Below the pieces are notes generated by a model that saw only the letters and a program-made list of their open reading frames with translations, did no database searches and was not told the DNA's origin. The position numbers were made by a program, and so were the translations under genes. 64,000 nt of DNA, taken from NCBI RefSeq assembly GCF_057098645.1, contig NZ_CM169472.1. One strand, 5' to 3'. Positions 11,823 to 53,627 of this stretch are shown piece by piece. Numbering within the stretch: position 1 is the stretch's first letter; each line of letters starts with the position of its first letter.

Positions 11823-12287
11823 ATGGAAAAGAAATTACCCCGCATTAAAGCGCTGCTAACCCCCGGCGAAGTGGCGAAACGCAGCGGTGTGGCGGTATCG
11901 GCGCTGCATTTCTATGAAAGCAAAGGGTTGATTACCAGTATCCGTAACAGCGGCAATCAGCGGCGATATAAACGTGATGTGTTGCGATATGTCGCAATTA
12001 TCAAAATTGCTCAGCGTATTGGCATTCCGCTGGCGACCATTGGTGAAGCGTTTGGCGTGTTGCCCGAAGGGCATACATTAAGCGCCAAAGAGTGGAAGCA
12101 GCTTTCTTCGCAATGGCGAGAAGAATTAGATCGGCGCATTCATACCTTAGTGGCGCTGCGTGACGAACTGGACGGATGTATTGGTTGTGGCTGCCTTTCG
12201 CGCAGTGATTGCCCGTTGCGTAACCCGGGCGACCGCTTAGGAGAAGAAGGTACCGGCGCACGCTTGCTGGAAGATGAACAAAACTAA
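11823..12287 (+). CDS. soxR: Redox-sensing MerR-family regulator with [2Fe-2S] cluster
   Basis: 154-aa ORF; MerR HTH ([26 protein letters not shown]) and C-terminal cysteine cluster [12 protein letters not shown]. Confidence 0.95.
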
Positions 12288-12316
12288 AGCGCCACAAGGG
12301 CGCTTTAGTTTGTTTT
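12286..12316. terminator. Rho-independent (bidirectional) terminator after soxR
   Basis: aaagcgcc-acaa-gggcgcttt stem-loop followed by agtttgtttt; A-rich on the other flank. Confidence 0.65.
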
Positions 12317-12430
12317 CCGGTCTTTGTCTTTCTCTCTATCCCGCTGGTACACAGGAGGGTTTCCCCCGACGTCAACACACCTCATTCGAGCACGTGGTGG
12401 AGGTTCCGGTTGGTGTTGATGCTTTAATTG
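12290..12430 (-). ncRNA. ryjA: Candidate small RNA in the soxR-ghxP spacer (position of K-12 ryjA); boundaries approximate
   Basis: K-12 carries sRNA RyjA in this intergenic region, antisense to soxR direction; the shared hairpin at 12286-12316 could serve as its terminator. Not verified by alignment. Confidence 0.25.
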
Positions 12431-30185: not shown

Positions 30186-30335
30186 ATGCCTGATGCGACG
30201 CTGGTGCGTCTTATCAGGCCTACGTCAGACAGCGCAATAGCCTGATTTAGCGTGATTTTGTAGGTCGGATAAGGCGTTTACGCCGCATCCGACATCAACG
30301 CCTGATGCGACGCTTAACGCGTCTTATCGGGCCTA
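30186..30335. repeat. REP/BIME cluster downstream of gltP
   Basis: Three or four REP palindromes (gcctgatgcgacgctggtgcgtcttatcaggcctac; gtcggataaggcgtttacgccgcatccgac; gcctgatgcgacgcttaacgcgtcttatcgggcc). Confidence 0.7.
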
Positions 30336-31027: not shown

Positions 31028-31086
31028 TTTGATAATACGATTGGGTAGGGAGTAACCAGTATAAAGAGTTCGAATGGATAAAAAAA

Positions 31087-31106
31087 CAGCCTCCGAAAGG
31101 AGGCTG
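31087..31106 (-). terminator. Rho-independent terminator after fdhF
   Basis: cagcctcc-gaaa-ggaggctg hairpin preceded on the plus strand by an A-run (U-tract on the minus-strand transcript). Confidence 0.6.
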
Positions 31107-31120
31107 TAGAAAGGACTGTA

Positions 31121-33268
31121 TTACGCCAGTGCCGCTTCGCGCAGGCGAGTTTTCAACTTGTTGTACTCGTCAATCACGTACTGCTCGGCGGCGCGCTGAT
31201 CGGCGATCGGCTCGACGCGCACGGCGCAGTATTTGTATTCCGGCGTTTTCGTAATCGGGCTTAAGTTTTCGGTAACCAGCTCGTTACAGGCACCAATCCA
31301 CCACTGGTAGGTCATATAAATCGCCCCTTTGTTCGGACGATCGCTGACCTGCGCACGGGTGATAATTTTGCCTTTACGCGAGTGCACCCAAACCAATGCC
31401 TCATCTTCAATACCCAGACGTTTGGCGTCTTCGGTATTGATTTGTGCGTAGCCAGGTTCATCAGCCAGCGCCGCCAGTGCCGCACAGTTACCGGTCATCG
31501 AACGGCAAGAGTAGTGACCAACTTCACGCACCGTTGACAGTACCATCGGGTACTCGTCGGTGAGTTTGTCGATTGGCGCTACCCAGTCGCAGGTGAAGAA
31601 CTGCGCCAGACCGTTTGGGGTATCAAACTTCTCTTTAAACAGATAAGAAGTCCCCTGATCGGCATCTGAAGTATCGCGGCAAGGCCACTGAATGAAGCCC
31701 AGTTCGCCCATTTTCTCGTAAGTCGCACCGTAGAAATCCGGGCACAGATGACGCAACTCATCCCAGATCTCCTGGGTGTTGTTGTAGTGCATCGGATAAC
31801 CCATACGGGTGGCGATTTCACTGATGATTTGCCAGTCCGTTTTCAGATCCCATTTCGGTTCAACCGCCTTGAAGAAACGCTGGAAGCCACGGTCAGCCGC
31901 AGTAAACACGCCTTCATGCTCGCCCCACGACGTTGACGGTAAAATAACATCCGCCGCCGACGCGGTTTTGGTCATAAAGATGTCCTGAACGATAACCAGT
32001 TCCAGATCTTCAAAGGCTTTACGTACTGCCGACAGCTCCGCGTCAGTTTGTAGCGGATCTTCGCCCATAATGTACGCGGCACGCACTTCGCCATGCGCTG
32101 CGCGGTGCGGCAGCTCGCTGATGCGATAGCCGGTATGCGCTGGCAGGCTTTCCACGCCCCAGGCTTTGGCGAATTTCTCGCGGTTAGCCGGATCTTTCAC
32201 ATACTGGTATCCCGGATACGTATCCGGCAGCGCGCCCATATCGCAGGCACCCTGAACGTTGTTCTGACCACGAACCGGGTTAACACCCGCATGTGGCTTA
32301 CCGAGGTTACCGGTCAGCATCGCGAGGCTGGTCAGAGAACGCACGGTTTCCACGCCCTGGTAGAACTGGGTTACACCCATGCCCCACAGGATGGCGGCGC
32401 TTTTCGCCTGGGCATACATCCGTGCCGCCTGACGAATCTCACTGGCGCTGACGCCGGTGATATCTTCAACCGACTCCGGCGTGTAGCCTTCAACGATTTT
32501 ACGATACTCTTCAAAGCCTTCTGTACGGGAAGCGACGAATGCTTTGTCGTACAGATTTTCTTCAATAATGACATGGCCCATCGCATTCAACAGCGCGATG
32601 TTCGAGCCGTTTTTCAGTGCAATGTGCATGTCAGCAATGCGCGCGGTTTCAATTTTGCGCGGATCGCAGACGATAATTTTCGCCCCGTTACGTTTAGCGT
32701 TAATTACGTGATTCGCCACGATTGGGTGGGAATCCGCCGGGTTGTACCCGAAAACGAACACTAAATCGGTATTATCAATTTCGTTAATAGCATTGCTCAT
32801 TGCGCCATTACCGACCGATTGGTGCAGACCTGCAACCGATGGGCCGTGTCAGACACGAGCGCAGCAGTCAACGTTATTGGTACCAATAACGGCGCGCGCA
32901 AATTTTTGCATTACATAGTTGGTTTCGTTACCCGTACCACGCGAGGAGCCGGTCGTCTGGATGGCATCCGGACCGTACTTCTCTTTGATGGCGCTCAGGC
33001 GCTCGGCAACGTAATTCAGTGCCTCATCCCAGGAAACAGGTTCGAGTTTGCCGCCACGCTGGCGACGGATCATGGGGGTTTTCAGGCGCGGGGTCAGGAT
33101 CTGGGTATCGTTAATGAAATCCCAGCCATAATAACCCTTCAGACACAGGGTACCCTGGTTGGTTTTCCCCTGCGCTGCCTCCGCCCGGACGATTTTGCCG
33201 TTATCGACGACCAGGTTGATTTTGCAACCTGATGCGCAATAGGGGCAAACCGTGACGACTTTTTTCAT
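31121..33268 (-). CDS. fdhF: Formate dehydrogenase H (selenocysteine, molybdopterin, 4Fe-4S)
   Basis: Two collinear same-frame ORF-track entries (32849-33268 and 31121-32800) separated by an in-frame TGA at 32849-32851 plus 16 codons; total 715 codons. N-terminal CPYCASGC Fe-S motif; ...VDCCARV-U-HGPSV... context. Confidence 0.9.
32800..32851 (-). other. Selenocysteine UGA codon (32849-32851) with the region expected to hold the bacterial SECIS stem-loop
   Basis: In-frame TGA inside fdhF; bacterial SECIS lies immediately 3' of the UGA on the mRNA. Stem-loop not folded by hand. Confidence 0.55.
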
Positions 33269-33465
33269 CGGTCTCGCTCCAGTTAATCAAATCACGCATA
33301 CGCGCTCTCGACTACAGTATGCATCTTTTATGCCACATTTTATTTGGGGTCATTCCCTGATATTACGGGCACTATTTATTCAAAACTCTGACGAAAAACA
33401 GGCTGTCGTCAGTTTTGACGTGACGAAACGAAATACCGCGTGACAGCCATCACGCGGCAGACATT

Positions 33466-40789: not shown

Positions 40790-41497
40790 ATGAAACCCGT
40801 CGTGCTGGTGGTGGATGATGACACGGCTATCTGCGCACTGTTGCAGGACGTGTTAAGTGAACATGTCTTTACGGTTTCAGTCTGCCATACCGGACAGGAG
40901 GCCATATTGCGTATTGAGGGCGATCCTGACATTGCGCTGGTGGTGCTGGATATGATGCTACCCGATACCAACGGCCTGAGGGTATTGCAGCAAATCCAGA
41001 AACTGCGTCCGACATTGCCGGTGGTGATGTTGACCGGCATGGGCAGTGAGTCTGATGTGGTGGTCGGGCTGGAAATGGGCGCGGATGATTACATCTGCAA
41101 ACCGTTCACCCCGCGGGTGGTGGTCGCACGACTGAAAGCGGTGTTGCGACGGGTTGGTGCGCTGGCGGTTAATGACGAGAAAAGCGCCGGGCTGTCATTC
41201 AATGGCTGGTATCTCGATACCATGCGCTGCCAGTTGCACAATCCGCTTCAGCAACATGTCGAGTTAACTCAGGGCGAATATGGCTTGTTACTGGCACTGG
41301 CGCAAAACGCGCGTCGGGTATTGAGCCGCGAGCAGTTGCTGGCGTTCACCCACAGCGACAGCGTGGAGGTGTTTGATCGCACCATCGACGTATTAATCAT
41401 GCGCTTACGACGCAAAATCGAACTCAACCCGCATCAGCCGATGTTGATTAAAACTCTGCGCGGTCTGGGGTATGTCTTCGCTGCCGACGTGCATTAA
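40790..41497 (+). CDS. OmpR/PhoB-family response regulator (receiver plus winged-helix DNA-binding domain)
   Basis: MKPVVLVVDDD..., phospho-acceptor Asp in VVLDMMLPD, conserved Lys in YICKPF, C-terminal LIKTLRGLGYVF winged helix. Start trimmed to the ATG preceded by GGAG. Confidence 0.85.
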   Translation: MKPVVLVVDDDTAICALLQDVLSEHVFTVSVCHTGQEAILRIEGDPDIALVVLDMMLPDTNGLRVLQQIQKLRPTLPVVMLTGMGSESDVVVGLEMGADDYICKPFTPRVVVARLKAVLRRVGALAVNDEKSAGLSFNGWYLDTMRCQLHNPLQQHVELTQGEYGLLLALAQNARRVLSREQLLAFTHSDSVEVFDRTIDVLIMRLRRKIELNPHQPMLIKTLRGLGYVFAADVH

Positions 41498-42495
41498 TCC
41501 GACATTTCTGTTTGCAGCTCTTCCAGCGTTTTCGCCCCGTCGATGGCATTGGCGCATAACAGGCTTGCCCGCGCGCAGGCGTGTGCCAGTTTGATGCTCT
41601 CGGTAAGCGTCCAGCGTTCATGGCAGCCATATAAAAATCCGGCACAAAATGCATCGCCCGCGCCGACGCTGCCGATAATTTCCCGTTGTTCTAACTTTTG
41701 CGAAGGGATCCACACGCTGCCCTGTTCTGGGGTCTCTCCCCACGCCCCTTCCGGGCAGTGGATCACCACCCGCTGGCGCACGCCCGCATCTAACAGTTCA
41801 CGCGCGGCGGCAGCAATATGCGCGATATGCGGTTCGCCGTTGGGTAACCGAATTTCCAGCCCGCTAAACTCCCCGGCCTCCAGTTCGTTAATTACCAGAT
41901 AATCCAGATGGCGCAACGCGGGCAGCACCAGCGGCTGATAACGCGGATCGCCCTTACGGGAGACCAGGTCGAGTGAGGTTTCAAAGCCAGTATCACGCAT
42001 TTGCGCCAGCAGGCGTGCGCTACGGGTGCCGTAAACATCGTCCGGCATATCCAGGCTGTCGAGCAACAGTAAATAGCCGAGATGGAAAATCTTCATGGTG
42101 TTATCGAGCTGATCGAACGCCGGAAGATCCAAAAGTCTGTTTGCACCCGGCGAATGGAAAAACGTCCGCTGCCCGCTTGGGTCTGTCATCACCTGCGACA
42201 TCGACGTCGGGGCAAAGGTAGTGCGCTGCACATGCTGACGATTGACGTGATATTGCTCAAGCATCGCCATGATGTAATCGCCGTCGCTGTCCTGACCGAT
42301 TAGCCCAACCGCCTGTAACGGCAGCCCGGTGCGCATTTTCGCCAGCGTCAGCAGGACGTTAAGCGGCGCACCGCCGGTGGAGCGTTCGCTGTGGGTGATC
42401 TCCGCCAGCCAGCCGCGCTCTGGCCACTGGATAATCTGATGGACGTGGTCAACCAACATATTGCCTGCGGCGATAATCCCTTTACGCTCCATCAT
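41494..42495 (-). CDS. PfkB-family carbohydrate kinase
   Basis: 333 aa; ribokinase-fold signature near the C-terminus (GSVGAGDAFCAGFLYG) and N-terminal GG dipeptide region. Confidence 0.8.
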   Translation of the reverse strand: MMERKGIIAAGNMLVDHVHQIIQWPERGWLAEITHSERSTGGAPLNVLLTLAKMRTGLPLQAVGLIGQDSDGDYIMAMLEQYHVNRQHVQRTTFAPTSMSQVMTDPSGQRTFFHSPGANRLLDLPAFDQLDNTMKIFHLGYLLLLDSLDMPDDVYGTRSARLLAQMRDTGFETSLDLVSRKGDPRYQPLVLPALRHLDYLVINELEAGEFSGLEIRLPNGEPHIAHIAAAARELLDAGVRQRVVIHCPEGAWGETPEQGSVWIPSQKLEQREIIGSVGAGDAFCAGFLYGCHERWTLTESIKLAHACARASLLCANAIDGAKTLEELQTEMSD

Positions 42496-43352
42496 GCCTG
42501 CCCCGCACTGCCAAAAATACGCATCTGTTGTGCAACCGTATCGCTGATGGCGGCTTCCACTGCCAGCAGTAACTCGGCAAACTCGTCATACATCGGCTGA
42601 CGGTGCGCCATTCGGGCCTCAACGGCAGCCAGCGCCGCTTGCGACATGCCAGTGTAGAAATTGATTTTGTGGATACCCAGTTCGATGGCGCGGCGGAAAT
42701 CGGCATCGCTAATCCCTGAGCCGCCGTGTAATACCAGCGGGATAGCAGCCTGCTGGCGGATAGCGTCGAGGCGCGGGAAATCGAGTTTCGGTTCGCCGCG
42801 ATATTTGCCGTGTGCATTGCCAATCGCCACGGCCAACGCGTCAATGCCGGTACGGTCGACAAAATCACGCGCCAGTTGCGGATCGGTAAACAGGGATTCA
42901 TCGGCATGACCATAGAGCGCACCGCCTTCGTCGCTACCCACCGCGCCCAGTTCAGCTTCTACCGATACGCCAACGGCATGGCACATTTTCACCACTTCCC
43001 GCGTCTGGCGGACATTTTCTTCATACCCCAGCGTGGAGCCATCAAACATTACCGAGCTGAATCCCAGCCGCAACGCTTGCACCACCGATTCAAAATGCAG
43101 TCCGTGATCGAGATTTAACACCACCGGAATGGCATGACGCGCCGCTTCAAATTTCACTGTCTCGACCAGGGAATCCAGCGAGATATATTTAAAATGTACT
43201 TCGGCAATGTTGATAATAAAGGGCGAACGTTCTTGTCTGGCAGCAGCAAACAAGGCGCGTAAAAAGTGCGAGTCCAGCACATTAAACGCACCTAACGAAT
43301 AGTGATGTTCGCGGGCATGTGCCAGCCCTTCAGCGAGACAAATCAATGGCAT
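42492..43352 (-). CDS. Class II (metal-dependent) ketose-phosphate aldolase, FbaA/GatY/KbaY family
   Basis: 286 aa; N-terminal MPLI...LAHAREHHYSLGAFNV, LNLDHG and LHGGSG motifs typical of class II TIM-barrel aldolases. Confidence 0.8.
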   Translation of the reverse strand: MPLICLAEGLAHAREHHYSLGAFNVLDSHFLRALFAAARQERSPFIINIAEVHFKYISLDSLVETVKFEAARHAIPVVLNLDHGLHFESVVQALRLGFSSVMFDGSTLGYEENVRQTREVVKMCHAVGVSVEAELGAVGSDEGGALYGHADESLFTDPQLARDFVDRTGIDALAVAIGNAHGKYRGEPKLDFPRLDAIRQQAAIPLVLHGGSGISDADFRRAIELGIHKINFYTGMSQAALAAVEARMAHRQPMYDEFAELLLAVEAAISDTVAQQMRIFGSAGQA

Positions 43353-43366
43353 AACGTTATCCTTAT

Positions 43367-44050
43367 TCAGCGGAACTGGCGGTATTCGTTACACAATACC
43401 AACTGTGCAGGTTCGTCTTCGTCAATCAGGTTGTAGCGGTCCAGTGGCTGTAAAAAGTGGTTATCGTGGTCGTCGTCATTGACAGAAGAGACTTCGCCAA
43501 CCAGAACATCGCCAAAGCCGGTTTCCGCCCAAAAGCTGTGATACAGGCCGGGCGGCAGGCAGATACTTTCGCCGGGAGACAGGCGCAACTGAGTGCCTGC
43601 AGTATGTTTCTGGCGGCAGCCGTCTATCACCACCGTAATGTCACTATCAGCCGTTTGCTCGTTACTATCGGCATTCCACAGTTCAACAATTAAATTACCG
43701 CCGCCGCGATTGATAATGTCCTCACGCTTACGCCAGTGAAAATGCATTGGCGTGACCTGCGCATCGCGCACATGCATGATCTTCTCGGCGTAACATTTCA
43801 CATACGGCATTCCTTTTGCTGAGCCGTTACGTAGGGTAAACAGCGTCAGCCCGTGTGCTGCAAAGTTGTTGCGACCAAAAGCGGTAACATCCCAGCCGAG
43901 TTTAAGATCAAAAACCTCCTCCCACGCGGCGGTGTCGAGCTGCTGCCATTGAGCAGGCGAGAAACTGGCAAAGGGCGGCAGATGTACGTCATGTTGCGAA
44001 AAGAATTGCCGTGTATGGCCGAGAATGTCGTTTATAGCGGAGCGTTTCAT
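43367..44050 (-). CDS. Cupin-fold sugar isomerase, D-lyxose/D-mannose isomerase-like
   Basis: 227 aa; cupin metal-binding region (TPMHFHWRKREDIINRGGG ... PGLYHSFW); resembles the D-lyxose isomerase family as I recall it from a pathogenic E. coli enzyme. Confidence 0.65.
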   Translation of the reverse strand: MKRSAINDILGHTRQFFSQHDVHLPPFASFSPAQWQQLDTAAWEEVFDLKLGWDVTAFGRNNFAAHGLTLFTLRNGSAKGMPYVKCYAEKIMHVRDAQVTPMHFHWRKREDIINRGGGNLIVELWNADSNEQTADSDITVVIDGCRQKHTAGTQLRLSPGESICLPPGLYHSFWAETGFGDVLVGEVSSVNDDDHDNHFLQPLDRYNLIDEDEPAQLVLCNEYRQFR

Positions 44051-44104
44051 CGAAAGCGTTCTCCTTAGCGGTGACCGGGCAGCTGCGCCGCCCGGCGCGT
44101 GGAC

Positions 44105-45046
44105 TTATTTCACCGTCCAGCCTTTGTAATTGCCGACGTTGTTTTTATCGATCATCGTCACCGGGATCAGCACCGGCTCTTTCGGCGCAGGTTTGCCCTG
44201 CAAAATGTCGTAGCCAATTTCCACCGCTTTCGCTGCCATCACCTGGGGATCTTGCGCCGGAGTAGCGACAAACAACGAGTTCTCACGCTTGAGCGCCTCT
44301 TCGGCGTCCGGGCTTCCGTCCACACCGACAATAAAGAACTCGTTACGTTGCGCCTGTTTTGCTGCCAGATCGGCACCGATTGCGGTGGGATCGTTAATCG
44401 CAAATACGCCGTCGATCTTCGGATTTGCCGCCAGCAGTCCCGTCATTACCTCCAGCCCGCCTTCACGACTGCCTTTCGCGTTCTGGTTGTCAGAGAGCAC
44501 TTTGATGTCAGGATGGCGTTTAAATTCAGTCTGGCATCCTTCGACGCGGTTTTGCACGGCGGATACCGGCGGGCCGTTGATGATCACCACATTGCCTTTG
44601 CCTTTCAGGCGATCGGTGATGTATTTACAGGCCATTTCGCCCGCCTGGGTGTTATCGGAGGTGATGGTGGCATCAGCACCTTCTGCCGCTACGTCAACCG
44701 CGACGACTACGATCCCGGCATCTTTCGCCCGTTTCACCGCCGGGCCGATCCCTTTTGAATCGGCAGCGTTGAGGATAATCATATCGACGTTAGCGGCGAT
44801 AAAGTTGTCTATCTGCGACACCTGCTGACCCAGATCGTAGCCGCTGGAAACCAGCGTCACTTTGACGTTATCGCCTGCCAGTTTGCGTGCTTCCAGCTCC
44901 GCGCCTTTGGTGATCTGCACGAAGAACGGGTTCGCCAGATCGCCCACCGTTACGCCTATCGATTTCAGTTCTTTCGCTTGGGCGAACGGTGCTGCGGCCA
45001 GCAGCGCGCCTGCACAGAGCGCGGTCACTAAGGGCTTCAATCTCAT
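44105..45046 (-). CDS. Periplasmic sugar-binding protein of an ABC transporter (RbsB/AlsB-like)
   Basis: 313 aa, signal peptide ending AQA, type I periplasmic binding fold (GVTVGDLANPFF..., GIVVVAVD). Confidence 0.85.
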   Translation of the reverse strand: MRLKPLVTALCAGALLAAAPFAQAKELKSIGVTVGDLANPFFVQITKGAELEARKLAGDNVKVTLVSSGYDLGQQVSQIDNFIAANVDMIILNAADSKGIGPAVKRAKDAGIVVVAVDVAAEGADATITSDNTQAGEMACKYITDRLKGKGNVVIINGPPVSAVQNRVEGCQTEFKRHPDIKVLSDNQNAKGSREGGLEVMTGLLAANPKIDGVFAINDPTAIGADLAAKQAQRNEFFIVGVDGSPDAEEALKRENSLFVATPAQDPQVMAAKAVEIGYDILQGKPAPKEPVLIPVTMIDKNNVGNYKGWTVK

Positions 45047-45064
45047 GCTGTATTCCTCATGTGT

Positions 45065-46039
45065 TTATGCACTTTGATGGTGTCGGGTACGGTATTTGTC
45101 GATCAGCACCGCAATGATGATCACCGCCCCTTTGATCACCAGTTGCCAGAAGTAAGAGACGCCCATTAAGGTCATGCCATTGTTGAGCGTGGCGATAATT
45201 AGCGCGCCGACCAGCGTGCCGGTGATGGTGCCGATGCCGCCGACAAAACTGGTGCCGCCGAGGATCACCGCTGCAATGGCATCCAGTTCGTAACCCATGC
45301 CTAAGTTGCCGTTGGCGCTGTACAGCCGTGAGGCGCTCATAATCCCGCCAAGCCCAGAAAGCAGGCCGCTCATGCCATAAACAAACAGCAGCACCAGCCA
45401 GACCTTAATGCCGGTAAGACGCGCCGCCTGCATATTGCCGCCGACGGCGTAGATATGAACGCCAAGCGTGGTGCGGCGTAGAATAAACCAGCACACCACG
45501 ATCACCGCCAGCGCAATCACCACCAGCCATGGGACCGGCCCGAGATAGTTGTTGCCTATCCACTCGAAATTAATGTTGGAGTTGATAACCGTGGTGCCGT
45601 CCGCCAGCAGATACGCCGCCCCGCGCAGCGCCGTATAGGTGCCAAGCGTAACGATAAACGGTGGCAATCCGGCAAAGGCCACCAGCGCGCCGTTGAACAG
45701 CCCCAGCAGCAGGCCGAGCATCAGCGCTGCCGGGATCGACAGCATGGCGAACTCAGGGCTAAGGGAGACGACCATCGCCGCCACCGCTGTGGTGCCGAGG
45801 ATCGAACCCACGGAAAGATCGATCCCGCCGGTCAAAATGATGAAGGTCATCCCCGCGGCCAGAACAATGTTGATCGATGCCTGGCGGGTAATATTCAGCA
45901 GGTTGCTTTCGGTAAAAAAGTTTGGCGCGATAAAGCCAAATACCGCCACGATCAGAATCAAAATGGGCAAGATGCCGACCGTTTGCATCAGATCGCTCAT
46001 CAGCATTTTTTTGGCAGAGGTTTTTGCAGAGGTCGTCAT
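45065..46039 (-). CDS. ABC sugar transporter permease (RbsC-like)
   Basis: 324-aa polytopic membrane protein; 4-bp overlap with the upstream ATPase gene. Confidence 0.85.
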
Positions 46040-47556
46040 GAGGTTACCGCCTGGGAATGGGCGTCGTTGACGCCAGTCGCTAAGGTCATAATGTTTTCCT
46101 GGGTGATGTTTTTGCCGTTTAACTCACCGGCAATGCTGCCTTCGCGCATCACATAGACGCGATCGCTCATTCCCACTATCTCCGGCAGTTCGCTGGAGAT
46201 CATCAGGATCGCCACGCCCTTGCGCGCCATCTCGTTCATGATCCGGTAGATCTCACTTTTGGCGCCAACGTCCACGCCGCGGGTGGGTTCATCGAGCAGT
46301 AAAATGCGCGGGCCAATCGCCACCCAGCGGGAGATCAACAGTTTTTGCTGATTGCCGCCGGAAAGCCCGCCCGCGCGTACCTGGGCATGAGGCACGCGAA
46401 TGTTGAGCAACTTGATGGCGTCATCGGAAATGGTTTGCGCTTTTTTGCGATTGAGCATTCCCCAGCTGGCATCGCGCTCCAGGGTTGCCATGGTGATGTT
46501 TTCGGCTGCTGCCATTTCAAGGAATAAGCCTTGTTCTTTGCGGTTTTCGGTGAGAAAACCAATGCCAAGATCGATGGCTTCGCGCGGGGAGTGGATCACC
46601 ACCGGTTCACCATCGACTTCAATCATTCCGCCTGTCGCTTTCCGCACGCCGAAGATCAACTGCGCCAGTTCGGAACGTCCGGCTCCTACCAGCCCGGCGA
46701 GGCCGACAATTTCGCCGGAACGCACCAGCAGGCTACTCGGCTGGACTTTGCCACCGTCGGTCAGGTGGTGAACATTCAGGCGGGCTTTGCCGAGCGGGAT
46801 ATCGCGCTCTTTATTGAACAGATCGCTCAGTGGCCTGCCGACCATCATCCGCACCAGCTCCCCGGCATTGAGGTTATCGCGGGTCAGGCTGCCAACGTAT
46901 TGCCCGTCGCGCAGCACGCTGACGCGATCGGAAAGCTCATACACTTCCGCCATACGGTGGCTGATGTAGATAATCGCCATCCCTTCATCGCGCAGCCGCA
47001 TAATCAGTTCAAACAGACGGTGAGTTTCACGGGAGGAGAGGGCAGCGGTGGGTTCGTCCATCACCAGAATGCGGCTGTTGCGATGCAGCGCGCGGGCGAT
47101 TTCGACCTGCTGTTGCTCGGCAATGGTCAGCATCATGACTTTATCGCTGGCGTTAAACTGCGCGCCGAGGCGGTCGATCACTCTTTGCGCCTGCACCAGC
47201 ATCTCTTTACGCTGCACCAGCCCGCCGTGGGAAAGCTCGCTACCGAGAAAAATATTTTCTGCCACCGTCAAATTGGGTGCCAGCTGCATCTCCTGATAAA
47301 TCAGCGTAATACCGGCACTTAAGGCATCTTTTGGCGTGCGAATGTGAAAGGGCTTGCCGTCTATGAGGATCTCGCCGCTGGTGGCGGTATACGCCCCCGC
47401 CAGCACCTTCATCAGCGTGCTTTTTCCCGCGCCGTTTTCCCCCATCAGGGCATGGATCTCGCCAGGGTAGACCGTCAAATCCACCCCTTTGAGCGCATAA
47501 AATTTGCCGAAGGCTTTGGCAATATTGCGCATCTCCAGAACTGGCCTGCTGTTCAT
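46036..47556 (-). CDS. ABC sugar transporter ATPase, tandem nucleotide-binding domains (RbsA-like)
   Basis: Two Walker A sites ([20 protein letters not shown]) and two signature motifs (LSSRE-like, LSGGNQQK); start trimmed to [16 protein letters not shown] with GGAG RBS. Confidence 0.85.
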
Positions 47557-47669
47557 GGTGGACTCCTGCGAGGTTGTCGATATCAGCACTCCATCACAGG
47601 AAAGTAAATGCAAAATGTCAGAAGCCGTTCATATTTGTCATATTGCGATTTTTCTTCACGGAGCGTGAT

Positions 47670-49934
47670 ATGGCGCACCCCGGACGTCACTTTTTTGCCA
47701 GCGCGCGCGGGCGATTGCTGCTTTTGAATTTGCTGGTGGTGGCGGTGACGTTGATGGTCAGCGGCGTGGCGGTAATGGGCTTTCGTCATGCCAGCCAGAT
47801 GCAGGAGCTGGTGCAGCAGCAAACGGTGGATGATATGACCGGCAGCCTGAATCTGGCGCGCGACACGGCAAACGTGGCAACGGCGGCGGTGCGATTGTCG
47901 CAGGTGGTGGGAGCGCTGGAATATAAAGGCGAAGCCGAGCGGTTGCAGGAGACACAGCGGGCATTAAAAAGCTCGCTTGCACAACTGGCGAACGCGCCTT
48001 TAGCGCAGCAGGAAGCCGGGCTGGTGACGCGCATCATCACGCGTAGCAACGAACTGCAAACCAGCGTCGGCGGTATGCTGGAGCGCGGGCAAAGGCGGCA
48101 TCTGGAGCGCAACGCGCTGTTAAGTTCGCTGTATCAAAACTTAAGTTATCTGCGGCATCTGCAAAAAGTCACTCACGCGCAAGATGATATTTTGCTTAAC
48201 GAGATGAACCGACTAATTGTTGCCGCTATTGCCACCCCCGCGCCGCAGGCGATTATTCATCAACTGGTCGGGGTAATGTCTGCGTTGCCGACCCACAGCG
48301 ATACGCCATTGGTTAATACGTTACTCAATGATTTCAATGATGAAATGCGTAAACTCGCGCCGCTTTCTGCCGCTCTGGAGCAAAGCGATCTGGCAATCAG
48401 CTGGTATATGTTTCACATCAAAGCGCTGGTGGCGATCCTCAATGGCGACATCAACCGTTACGCCGAACAGGTGGCGACGCTCTCCGGTCAGCGTGTGGCG
48501 CAAAGTTACCAGGATTTGCGCTCCGGCGAGAGGGTGATCATGATTTTCGCCCTGTTAGCGGTGGTGATCACCGCGTTTGCCGGCTGGTATATCTATCGCA
48601 ACCTCGGCACTAACCTGACGGCGATTTCCCGCGCCATGAGCCGCCTGGCGCACGGCGAAGCGGACGTCACTTTTCCGGCGTTACAGCGGCGTGATGAGTT
48701 GGGTGAACTGGCGCGCGCCTTTAACGTTTTTGCCCGCAATACCGAGTCACTCGAACGAACCTCACGGCTGCTAAAAGAGAAGACCACGCAGATGGAGATT
48801 GCCCAAACTGAGCGGCAGGGGTTGGAAGAGGCGCTATTACACAGCCAGAAACTGAAAGCGGTCGGGCAACTGACGGGCGGGCTGGCCCATGATTTTAATA
48901 ATCTGCTGGCGGTGATTATTGGCAGCCTGGAGCTGGTGAATCCGGACTCGCCAGACGCGCCGCGAATACAGCGGGCGCTGCAAGCTGCCGAACGTGGGGC
49001 GCTACTGACACAACGACTGCTGGCGTTTTCCCGCAAGCAGTCCTTACATCCGCAAGCCGTTGAACTGAAAACATTGCTGGAAGAGTTAAGCGAATTAATG
49101 CGCCACTCCTTACCGGCAACGCTGGCGCTGGAGATTGAAGCGCAGTCTCCGGCGTGGCCCGCGTGGATTGACATCAGCCAACTGGAAAATGCCATCATCA
49201 ACCTGGTGATGAACGCCCGTGACGCGATGGAAGGGCAGACGGGAATCATCAAAATTCGTACCTGGAATCAGCGCGTTACTCGCAGCAGTGGGCAGCGTCA
49301 GGACATGGTGGCACTGGAGGTCATCGATCATGGCAGCGGTATGTCGCAGGCGGTGAAAAGCCAGGTATTTGAGCCATTCTTTACCACCAAACAGACGGGC
49401 AGCGGCAGCGGGCTGGGGTTGTCGATGGTCTATGGTTTTGTGCGCCAGTCCGGTGGGCGCGTTGAAATTGAAAGCGCGCCGGGGCAGGGGACAACGGTCA
49501 GATTACAGCTTCCCCGCGCGCTGACGGCGGCGAAAAACCTATCGCCAGCGGCAGTAGAACAGGCTTCTGTCAGCGGCGATAAACTGGTGTTAGTGCTGGA
49601 AGATGAAGCCGCGGTGCGCCAGACCATCTGCGAACAGTTGCACCTGCTGGGCTATTTGACGCTGGAAGCAAGCAGCGGCGAACAGGCGCTGGATCTGCTG
49701 GCGGCATCAGCAGAAATCGATATTTTTATCAGCGATTTAATGCTCCCCGGCGGCATGAGCGGCGCAGAAGTGGTCAATGCGGCCCGCAAACTTTACCCGC
49801 ACCTGACGCTGCTACTCATCAGCGGTCAGGATTTACGCCCCAGCCATAACCCCGCGCTGCCAGACGTGGCGCTGTTGCGCAAACCCTTTACCCGTGCGCA
49901 GTTGGCGCAGGCGCTGGGGCAAATTGAGGGATGA
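47670..49934 (+). CDS. Hybrid sensor histidine kinase (periplasmic sensor, HAMP, HisKA, HATPase, C-terminal receiver)
   Basis: Start trimmed to ATG 47670 (MAHPGRHFF...); two TM segments flanking a roughly 270-aa helical periplasmic domain; H-box GGLAHDFNNLL; ATP lid DHGSGM, GSGLGLS; receiver with Asp in IFISDLMLPG. No HPt domain. Confidence 0.85.
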   Translation: MAHPGRHFFASARGRLLLLNLLVVAVTLMVSGVAVMGFRHASQMQELVQQQTVDDMTGSLNLARDTANVATAAVRLSQVVGALEYKGEAERLQETQRALKSSLAQLANAPLAQQEAGLVTRIITRSNELQTSVGGMLERGQRRHLERNALLSSLYQNLSYLRHLQKVTHAQDDILLNEMNRLIVAAIATPAPQAIIHQLVGVMSALPTHSDTPLVNTLLNDFNDEMRKLAPLSAALEQSDLAISWYMFHIKALVAILNGDINRYAEQVATLSGQRVAQSYQDLRSGERVIMIFALLAVVITAFAGWYIYRNLGTNLTAISRAMSRLAHGEADVTFPALQRRDELGELARAFNVFARNTESLERTSRLLKEKTTQMEIAQTERQGLEEALLHSQKLKAVGQLTGGLAHDFNNLLAVIIGSLELVNPDSPDAPRIQRALQAAERGALLTQRLLAFSRKQSLHPQAVELKTLLEELSELMRHSLPATLALEIEAQSPAWPAWIDISQLENAIINLVMNARDAMEGQTGIIKIRTWNQRVTRSSGQRQDMVALEVIDHGSGMSQAVKSQVFEPFFTTKQTGSGSGLGLSMVYGFVRQSGGRVEIESAPGQGTTVRLQLPRALTAAKNLSPAAVEQASVSGDKLVLVLEDEAAVRQTICEQLHLLGYLTLEASSGEQALDLLAASAEIDIFISDLMLPGGMSGAEVVNAARKLYPHLTLLLISGQDLRPSHNPALPDVALLRKPFTRAQLAQALGQIEG

Positions 49935-50346
49935 TTTTCAGAATTTATCAAGAGGCCTGAAGCAAATGTGCTGCTATTGTGAGCAATTCTGTTCTGAATG
50001 GGATATAAAAGGAATTATGCCAGTACTGACAAGAGGCGATTCACATATGATCGTGATGCCAACCACCTATAGCGATTTCAGTGTTTGTATTAGACACTGA
50101 ACAAGGGGCATTTTGGCCTTATGATGGCACGAAAGTGATCTACGATGGCGGTTGCATTCCGGAAGAGCGTATCTGGAGTATTTCACCGGATCAAAAATGT
50201 CATGGCATTGTGCTGGTGGCGGAAAATAAACAGCGAGCTAACCAGCTAATGGAAGAGTCTGCGCCTTACCGAATTTGAGATTACTCCGCTACTCCGGTCA
50301 TTCACACTCAACTAACGTTAAGCCAGTCCATCGCAGAGACTGGCTT

Positions 50347-52491: not shown

Positions 52492-53627
52492 CAGAACACC
52501 CTTTTACCCTGACGCCAGACGTGGTCGATATGAATGTGATTGCCCTTGCGATGCGCCAGCACCAGGTCCGCGCGATTGCCCTCGCCAATCACCCCGCGAT
52601 CCTGGAGATTAAGCGCTTGCGCCGGATTTTTAGTCACCAGCCTCACCGCCTGCGGCAGCGTAAAGCGGTTGCTCTGGTCATCGGCCACGCGGAACGCCGC
52701 ATCCAGCAGGCTGGCGGGGTAGTAGTCGGAAGAGAGGATATCCAGCAGGCCAAGCTGCGCCAGTTCACTGGCCGCCACGTTGCCGGAGTGCGAACCGCCG
52801 CGCACGATATTCGGCGCGCCCATCAGCACGTTCATGCCATGCTTGCGCGAGGCTTGTGCCGCTTCGAACGTGGTGGGAAATTCGGCGATCACGCTGCCAA
52901 GCTGGTGGGATTCGGCAACGTGGGCGTGCGTGGCGTCATCGTGGCTGGCGAGGGCAATTTGTCTTGCGCGGCACAGGGCGGCGATAGTTTCGCGATTCGG
53001 CTGCGACCAGCGTGCGGCGAGCGCCAGTTGCTCTTCTTCGTACTGCTGCATCTGCGCATCGGTGAGCGAGTATTTGCCCTGATAATACTCGCGATACTTC
53101 TCGCGGTTGGCGAACTGGCGCTGGCCCGGCGAGTGATCCATCAGCGACACCAGCGTCACCGGCTCGCGCTGCACCAGTTTTTCAAACAGCGGCAGCGTAG
53201 TGTGATGCGGCAGTTCGCAGCGCAGATGCAGGCGGTGCTCGGCGCGGTTGACGCCGCGTTTCTGCGTCTCTTCGATGGCGTTGATCATCTTCTCCAGATT
53301 TTCCAGCCGATCGCCGCCGTCGCGCACGTCGCCAATTGCTACGGCATCCAGTACGGTGGTGATGCCGCTCGCCACCATCAGCGCGTCGTGGCTGCTCATC
53401 GCCGAGTGGGCGGGCCAGTCCACTTTCGGGCGCGGGGTGAAGAATTTATCCAGGTTATCGGTATGCAGCTCAATCAGCCCCGGCAGCAGCCAGCCGCCTT
53501 CGCCGTCCATCGCCTCCGGCAGGCGGCTCTGGCTTTCGGCAAAGGCGCGGATTTCGCCGTCCTGCACCTCCAGCGAACCGTGTACCACCTCGTTTTCCAG
53601 CACCAGTTTGACGTTATTGATAATCAT
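52491..53627 (-). CDS. phnM: RPnTP diphosphatase (amidohydrolase fold)
   Basis: 378 aa; metal-binding LHTDNLDK region. Confidence 0.9.

Follow-up and report, generated by a model that had tools for sequence, protein, structure and literature searches.

The question raised by this locus is whether two neighbouring minus-strand open reading frames (ORFs), listed at 32849..33268 (139 aa, C-terminal VDCCARV) and 31121..32800 (559 aa) in the 64,000-nt stretch of DNA analysed here (the window), are the remains of a broken gene, two genes in their own right, or the halves of one gene that is read through a selenocysteine (Sec) codon. Our answer is that the locus is almost certainly an intact Escherichia coli fdhF gene for formate dehydrogenase H, in which the UGA at codon 140 is decoded as selenocysteine. 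The window carries the dnaB-alr ... nrf-gltP-yjcO-fdhF-mdtPON ... phn-crfC region of the E. coli chromosome, and its last 24.5 kb are 100% identical to the E. coli O145:H28 strains RM12761 and RM13516; judged by its sequence, the window is an O145:H28-like chromosome. Strict collinearity with strain RM9872 was tried and rejected (10645 apparent mismatches): a BLAST comparison with that strain gave an 18-bp indel at about 3260 and a difference of roughly 400 bp in phnM, and the window fits RM12761 and RM13516 instead. The gene order yjcO-fdhF-mdtP is identical in K-12 MG1655 and in the O145 strains, and in both backgrounds RefSeq annotates the interval as one 2148-nt fdhF CDS.

Translation of 31121-33268 (minus strand) in a single frame gave 716 codons, among which the only stops are codon 140 and the terminal codon. 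Around the internal stop the peptide reads NNVDCCARV on the N-terminal side and HGPSVAGLHQSVGNGAM SNAI on the C-terminal side. Sixteen sense codons (32848-32801, peptide HGPSVAGLHQSVGNGA) lie between the TGA and the ATG at 32800, and this ATG corresponds to the internal Met157 of the full fdhF product. A preliminary description of the DNA had placed the two ORFs in the same frame, split by a single TGA at 32849-32851 and followed by 16 sense codons in the context VDCCARV-U-HGPSV; the one-frame translation agrees, and both the coordinates and the peptide are exact. When fdhF was subjected to 2000 mononucleotide shuffles, the frame contained a mean of 30 stops and a minimum of 14. Since shuffled frames hold at least 14 stops, a 715-codon frame with one break is far beyond chance.

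The identity of the protein was then established from structures and family models. With Cys in place of the UGA residue 140, the 715-aa product was used as the query of a PDB search and was 100% identical over 715 aa to 1aa6_A, in which an X at position 140 stands opposite the UGA. The same chain is found in PDB 1fdo, 1fdi, 2iv2 and 7z0t, labelled 'formate dehydrogenase H'. The NCBIfam equivalog TIGR01591 ('formate dehydrogenase subunit alpha') scored 1095.7 bits against a cut-off of 666.25, and it alone among the NCBIfam models shown did not score below its own cut-off. Three Pfam domains were recognised in the product: the Fe4S4 domain (PF04879, residues 1-54), the molybdopterin oxidoreductase domain (PF00384, residues 61-487), which spans UGA codon 140, and the molybdopterin dinucleotide-binding domain (PF01568, residues 576-682). 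The gene had been named fdhF from its sequence, and the identity to PDB 1AA6, the TIGR01591 score and the RefSeq annotation in K-12 and O145 all support that name. We take the product to be a selenium- and molybdenum-containing protein that serves as the catalytic subunit of formate hydrogenlyase. In formate dehydrogenase H, Sec140 is a ligand of the Mo centre, and for K-12, whose protein is identical, detection of the 79-kDa full-length selenoprotein has been published. PMC4513850 describes UGA140 as the codon for Sec in E. coli fdhF.

Recoding of this kind depends on a SECIS element, and one was found at the expected place. Scanning the whole window with Rfam at the gathering threshold returned SECIS_2 (RF01988) across the UGA on the minus strand (Table 1), with 87.1 bits against a gathering score of 70, an E-value of 1.8e-17, coverage of model positions 1-55 of 55 and all consensus positions matched. 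A basal helix embraces the UGA, pairing 32852-32856 with 32802-32806, and the main hairpin starts within a few nucleotides of the in-frame UGA, inside the CDS, so that the 40-nt SECIS doubles as the coding sequence for residues 141-153. The fdhF SECIS is defined by a 17-nt minimal stem-loop with U17 and G23/U24, according to the review PMC8659212, which cites Liu et al. 1998. In the window this minimal stem-loop starts 11 nt past the UGA and the defining bases are present at the correct spacing: bulged U17 at 32835, loop G23 at 32829 and loop U24 at 32828. The preliminary description had predicted the SECIS at about 32800-32848; the hairpin was located at 32812-32848, and its apical loop contains G23 and U24. 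The element is a bacterial fdhF-type SECIS, namely SECIS_2 (RF01988).

Table 1 Features of the fdhF locus (window coordinates).
Feature	Position	Strand	Basis
Intrinsic terminator, ACAGCCTCC-TTTC-GGAGGCTGT then T7	31086..31107	-	Terminator scan
fdhF complete CDS, 715 codons + TAA	31121..33268	-	One frame with a sole internal TGA
Full Rfam SECIS_2 extent, basal helix and main hairpin	32802..32856	-	RF01988
Classical 40-nt fdhF SECIS, numbered from U1 of the UGA	32812..32851	-	Hairpin fold
Minimal 17-nt SelB-binding stem-loop GGUUGCAGGUCUGCACC, SECIS positions 15-31	32821..32837	-	Bases verified
UGA codon 140, recoded as selenocysteine (Sec140)	32849..32851	-	Only internal stop; aligns with X140 of the crystallised protein
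Shine-Dalgarno GGAG, 8 nt 5' of the ATG (33268-33266)	33277..33280	-	Read from the sequence
Sigma-54 (-24/-12) promoter element of fdhF, GTGGCATAAAAGATGCA	33320..33336	-	Equals ChIP-seq site
Inverted repeats TCAAAACTCTGACGA / TCGTCAGTTTTGA and TCGTCA / TGACGA	33380..33426	.	Repeat search

Folding energy turned out to be a poor guide to this element. The 40-nt stretch that follows the UGA forms a hairpin with a minimum free energy (MFE) of -14.2 kcal/mol, and the MFE structures of the 61-, 48- and 40-nt stretches equal the SECIS_2 consensus structure. Against dinucleotide shuffles the z-scores were -1.04 (61 nt), -0.67 (48 nt), -1.55 (40 nt) and -0.67 (17 nt), and 16-49 of 200 shuffles folded equally well across the lengths (16 of 200 for the 40-mer), so no significant energy excess over dinucleotide shuffles was observed for the hairpin at any of the four lengths from 17 to 61 nt. 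Folding the RNA had been put forward as a check on the Sec reading; the expected hairpin does form at the predicted site, but its stability does not rise above that of the shuffles. The coding sequence is G+C-rich and its shuffles fold alike, and a stable hairpin is therefore weak evidence for a SECIS; equally, with an energy no better than that of shuffles, the lack of a stable hairpin would be a weak test for refuting one. Fold energy was accordingly dropped as decisive evidence for the hairpin, as z-scores of -0.67 to -1.55 fail to separate it from shuffles, and the case for the SECIS is carried by the covariance-model match and by comparative conservation.

For the comparison across genera, a plain DNA pattern for C-A-R-V-UGA-H-G-P (TGYGCNCGNGTNTGACAYGGNCC), which leaves everything 3' of SECIS position 11 unconstrained, was run on a collection of genomes from 100,044 species. 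It matched 120 loci, mostly in Enterobacterales, Pasteurellaceae and Shewanella with some in Coriobacteriia. One locus (L022) was a false positive of the scan, with an in-frame stop soon past the motif, and was left out of the alignment. The 62 usable distinct 60-mers align gap-free with the window sequence, giving 63 aligned Sec-fdhF sequences. Throughout these, U17 and the loop GGUCU are invariant. Base pairing was possible in 90.5% of cells under the Rfam/MFE structure and in 91.2% under the register of the literature (U17 bulged, U18-A29 paired), compared with 21-49% in a slid control in which the 3' partners were moved by 1-3 columns. Double-sided changes in the bulged-U17 register numbered 26, against 6.6 ± 2.0 in shuffles, and none of 500 shuffles reached 26, in a control that ignores the relatedness among the 63 sequences. 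These changes are confined to three of the 20 pairs, and most helices rest on conservation. Two pairs of the apical stem covary: U18-A29 is UA in 50 sequences, AU in nine and CG in two, while G15-C31 is GC in 49, UA in 10, UG in two and CG in one. In the MFE/Rfam register 11 cells are unpaired at the U18/A29 pair, and on the counts at this pair the comparative data speak for the bulged-U17 geometry known from experiment rather than for the register of the energy model.

The alignment also separates the constraint on the RNA from that on the protein. The four-fold degenerate third-codon sites U24 (GGU) and G27 (CUG) show no variation and position 21 (GCA) hardly varies, whereas three or four bases occur at comparable degenerate sites beyond the apical stem-loop (positions 12, 33, 42 and 51). 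Changes of U18 are synonymous in the codon of Val145 and are matched by replacement of His149 with Leu or Arg, which preserves the U18-A29 pairing; changes in the Val145 codon paired with His149 replacements indicate that the RNA structure shapes the protein sequence. Across the 63 distinct sequences, covariation and conservation in the SECIS thus exceed what the protein code requires. When distant Sec-fdhF loci were scanned with Rfam, only those of Hafnia and Morganella were recognised; no SECIS family reached the gathering score in Haemophilus, Actinobacillus, Shewanella or a Coriobacteriales genome.

The basal helix calls for more caution. Its cells pair in 97.8% of cases in the 63 sequences, and its variable positions switch almost exclusively between C and U opposite G; no double-sided change was seen in this helix (32852-32856 / 32802-32806) among the 63 sequences. 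From this pattern we consider it possible, though on balance doubtful, that the basal helix, which lies outside the classical 40-nt SECIS, is selected and contributes to recoding. The helix may, for example, influence how accessible the UGA is or when SelB is released; the pairing pattern may instead be explained by protein coding.

Within E. coli the locus is close to uniform. An alignment with fdhF of K-12 MG1655 (b4079), which had been proposed alongside the folding, returned only nine differences over the CDS, all synonymous and none in the recoding region; a 69-nt stretch surrounding the UGA is the same in both. On either side of the gene, the intergenic region carries one base difference from MG1655 (for the upstream region, 1 in 197 nt). 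The protein, the recoding region, the neighbours yjcO and mdtP and the sigma-54 motif are thus those of K-12; the background here is O145:H28-like instead, and we expect no difference in function. Of 5426 complete E. coli genomes, 5418 carry the 2.6-kb locus; 1301 of 5420 matching records reach only 95-99% identity over it. The 81-nt recoding stretch was found in 5419 of the 5426 genomes, and 5403 of 5420 matching records have at least 99% identity to it, which amounts to no change.

These data bear directly on the other ways in which the locus might be read. If a nonsense mutation at codon 140 had turned fdhF into a pseudogene, only a 139-aa N-terminal fragment would be made. TGA is literally a stop and makes the ORF lister split fdhF, and some ribosomes do terminate at the UGA, where Sec recoding has an efficiency of about 30-40% and the remaining ribosomes terminate via RF2 (PMC4513850). 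However, the identical TGA with its flanks recurs in those 5403 of 5420 matching E. coli records, and 62 more distinct sequences, taken from other genera, have a TGA there as well. Downstream lie 575 codons without another stop and with only synonymous differences from K-12, a SECIS follows codon 140, and Sec occupies position 140 of the crystallised full-length protein. Conservation of both the TGA and the downstream frame excludes a pseudogene, to which we assign a vanishingly small probability; the preliminary description had likewise called the UGA a selenocysteine codon and the gene no pseudogene, and the domain that crosses the UGA speaks for the same reading. It is next to impossible that the ORFs are separate genes, one for a 139-aa Fe-S protein and the other for a 559-aa molybdopterin protein translated from the ATG at 32800. 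Each ORF does begin with ATG, but that at 32800 is Met157 of a crystallised single chain, the Pfam Molybdopterin domain (61-487) crosses the junction, the 16 intervening codons are conserved as protein across genera and the RefSeq annotation has one CDS; the junction-spanning domain and the single crystallised chain together exclude this arrangement.

Read-through of the UGA could also proceed without Sec, by a near-cognate Trp or Cys tRNA or by suppression, with the hairpin as a mere roadblock, and hairpins 3' of stop codons can generally stimulate read-through. We regard this as very improbable. The SelB contacts (the bulged U and the apical loop) do not vary, not even at four-fold degenerate positions, while the helices tolerate compensated changes; a frozen loop and bulge on compensated helices are what a sequence-specific protein-binding site, not a roadblock, is expected to display. 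Moreover, Sec140 is present in the solved structures, and the selAB genes are nearly universal in E. coli. Neither selA, selB, selC and selD nor any tRNA gene was found in the window, but all but one of 5426 complete E. coli genomes (5425) have selAB; given this ubiquity at the species level, the source strain almost certainly has them too and probably has the rest of the Sec machinery. Within the window there is no sequence evidence against Sec recoding.

On this basis a decoding pathway can be proposed for the locus. Seryl-tRNA synthetase charges tRNA(Sec) with serine; SelA, drawing on selenophosphate from SelD, then turns the product into Sec-tRNA(Sec), and SelB-GTP holds Sec-tRNA(Sec) through its domains 1-3 and the SECIS through domain 4 (PMC4513850). 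In the fdhF mRNA, the RNA directly 3' of the UGA would fold into the SECIS hairpin, and SelB domain 4 would bind its apical part (bulged U17, loop G23/U24). This would tether the SelB-GTP-Sec-tRNA(Sec) complex, so that Sec-tRNA(Sec) would enter the A site when the ribosome meets the UGA, and ribosomes that do not insert Sec would be terminated by RF2. The resulting Sec140 would become part of the molybdenum active site. To this picture our analysis contributes the single frame, the identity to a crystallised selenoprotein, the covariance-model match, the defining nucleotides, the conservation and covariation, and the sigma-54 motif; SelB binding, Sec insertion and competition by RF2 come from experiments on the identical K-12 sequence (PMC4513850).

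Transcription of fdhF would start at a sigma-54 promoter that FhlA activates when formate is present. The sigma-54 element in Table 1 is identical to ChIP-seq site OS41, assigned to fdhF (b4079) (PMC4591121). Scanning the window for the consensus TGGCAC-N5-TTGCA with at most two mismatches gave 21 matches against 27 expected, i.e. no enrichment in the window; the consensus scan alone is uninformative, and the site was accepted because it equals the published ChIP-seq site. A cluster of inverted repeats lies about 55-100 nt upstream of this element. FhlA has been reported to bind upstream of fdhF (PMC11291172), and the repeats are plausibly the upstream activating site for FhlA, for which we put them forward as a candidate. 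On the other side of the gene, 13 nt past the fdhF stop codon, there is a strong intrinsic terminator, whose hairpin has nine pairs (six of them G-C) followed by a T-run.

Several known systems place the element in context. The SECIS elements of fdnG and fdoG, the other selenoprotein genes of E. coli, and the Rfam family SECIS_3 (RF01989) follow the same principle: inside the gene for a catalytic subunit of formate dehydrogenase, an in-frame UGA precedes a hairpin that SelB binds and that has GU in its loop. However, the element in the window scored only 35.8 bits with SECIS_3, short of the cut-off of 63, and several pairs in this match were non-canonical; proteins of the FDH-N type are also distant from the fdhF product (PDB 1kqf, E 7.6e-45; TIGR01553, 249 bits against a cut-off of 814). 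The SECIS elements of eukaryotes and archaea are likewise cis-acting RNA structures that redefine UGA as Sec; they reside in untranslated regions, involve kink-turn/SBP2-type recognition and act at a distance, whereas the element in the window sits within the CDS, directly 3' of the UGA. Because the fdhF SECIS is inside the CDS, protein-coding and RNA constraints have to be satisfied at once, as the coupled changes in the Val codon and the His/Leu/Arg codon show.

The fdhF gene is the founding example of bacterial selenocysteine recoding. Its recoding site is already known as a textbook case, the element in the window adds nothing new to it, and the locus is functionally unchanged from K-12 in every respect. 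What the locus does illustrate is a matter of annotation, in that gene callers and ORF tracks that treat UGA as a stop split fdhF or turn it into a pseudogene; it is best annotated as a single CDS with a translation exception at codon 140. The comparison across genera, in turn, illustrates how one stretch of mRNA meets protein and RNA constraints together.

Differences between the window and other E. coli O145 genomes were found at two sites. Approximately 400 bp of phnM (window 52766-53167) is missing from strain RM9872 and several other O145 genomes by BLAST, and in the genomes without it phnM is annotated as a short CDS of 723 nt. A 12-base overlap between the BLAST pieces where they join suggests that this loss is a deletion between short direct repeats. 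Intact phnM is common to the window and strains RM12761 and RM13516. Between tyrB and aphA (window position ~3260), RM9872 carries an 18-bp stretch, ATCTTTGGCATAAGAGAA, that is absent from the window; the RM9872 annotation at this site is a frameshifted hypothetical protein.

Genes not in K-12 were found at window ~40800-50300 and 16136-17428 (minus strand). Between yjcS and yjdP lie genes for a response regulator, a hybrid sensor kinase, a sugar ABC transporter, a D-lyxose/D-mannose isomerase, an aldolase and a kinase; in K-12 this interval holds the als-rpiB genes. The type III secretion effector gene espX5 was located between yjcE and actP.

Non-coding RNA families and the elements upstream of fdhF are listed in the table. 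The four naRNA4 matches scored 69-100 bits and are taken to be intergenic REP-type repeats; one of them lies directly 3' of yjcO, two genes away from fdhF. The nested inverted repeats are a likely candidate site for the activator FhlA.

Non-coding RNAs and fdhF upstream elements in the window
Feature	Position	Strand	Remarks
sraL (RF01408), Hfq-binding sRNA	12280-12420	-	full-length match, 153.3 bits; 3' of soxR
naRNA4 (RF02564)	19658-19729	+	Rfam match
naRNA4 (RF02564)	30263-30333	+	Rfam match
naRNA4 (RF02564)	59650-59730	+	Rfam match
naRNA4 (RF02564)	62206-62282	-	Rfam match
Nested inverted repeats TCAAAACTCTGACGA / TCGTCAGTTTTGA and TCGTCA / TGACGA	33380-33426		5' of fdhF sigma-54 promoter
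mdtP terminator hairpin	33434-33459		adjoins the inverted repeats

The 81-nt stretch of fdhF around the recoded UGA was missing from seven of the 5426 complete E. coli genomes searched, and 4 of its 5420 copies in this collection were on records classed as plasmids. Among selenocysteine-type fdhF loci of other genera, two from Pasteurellaceae (L005, L034), one from Shewanella (L069) and one from Coriobacteriales (L029) matched no Rfam SECIS family at gathering score. In each of the four the TGA is in frame, the loop is again GGUCU and changes in the apical stem are compensated; the curated Rfam models do not appear to cover them.

The bulged U17 of the E. coli fdhF SECIS (numbered from the U of UGA) is essential. 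Position 30 is G rather than C, changing His149 to Gln, in the loci from Morganella (L017), Proteus (L050), Providencia (L053), Hafnia (L018) and Edwardsiella (L028). These loci still pass the Rfam SECIS_2 model at 79-81 bits, with Hafnia and Morganella recognised. In place of the bulged U17, a G30-type hairpin could form a U17-G30 pair or a G16 bulge, and fdhF mRNAs of this type may therefore present a slightly different recognition geometry to SelB.
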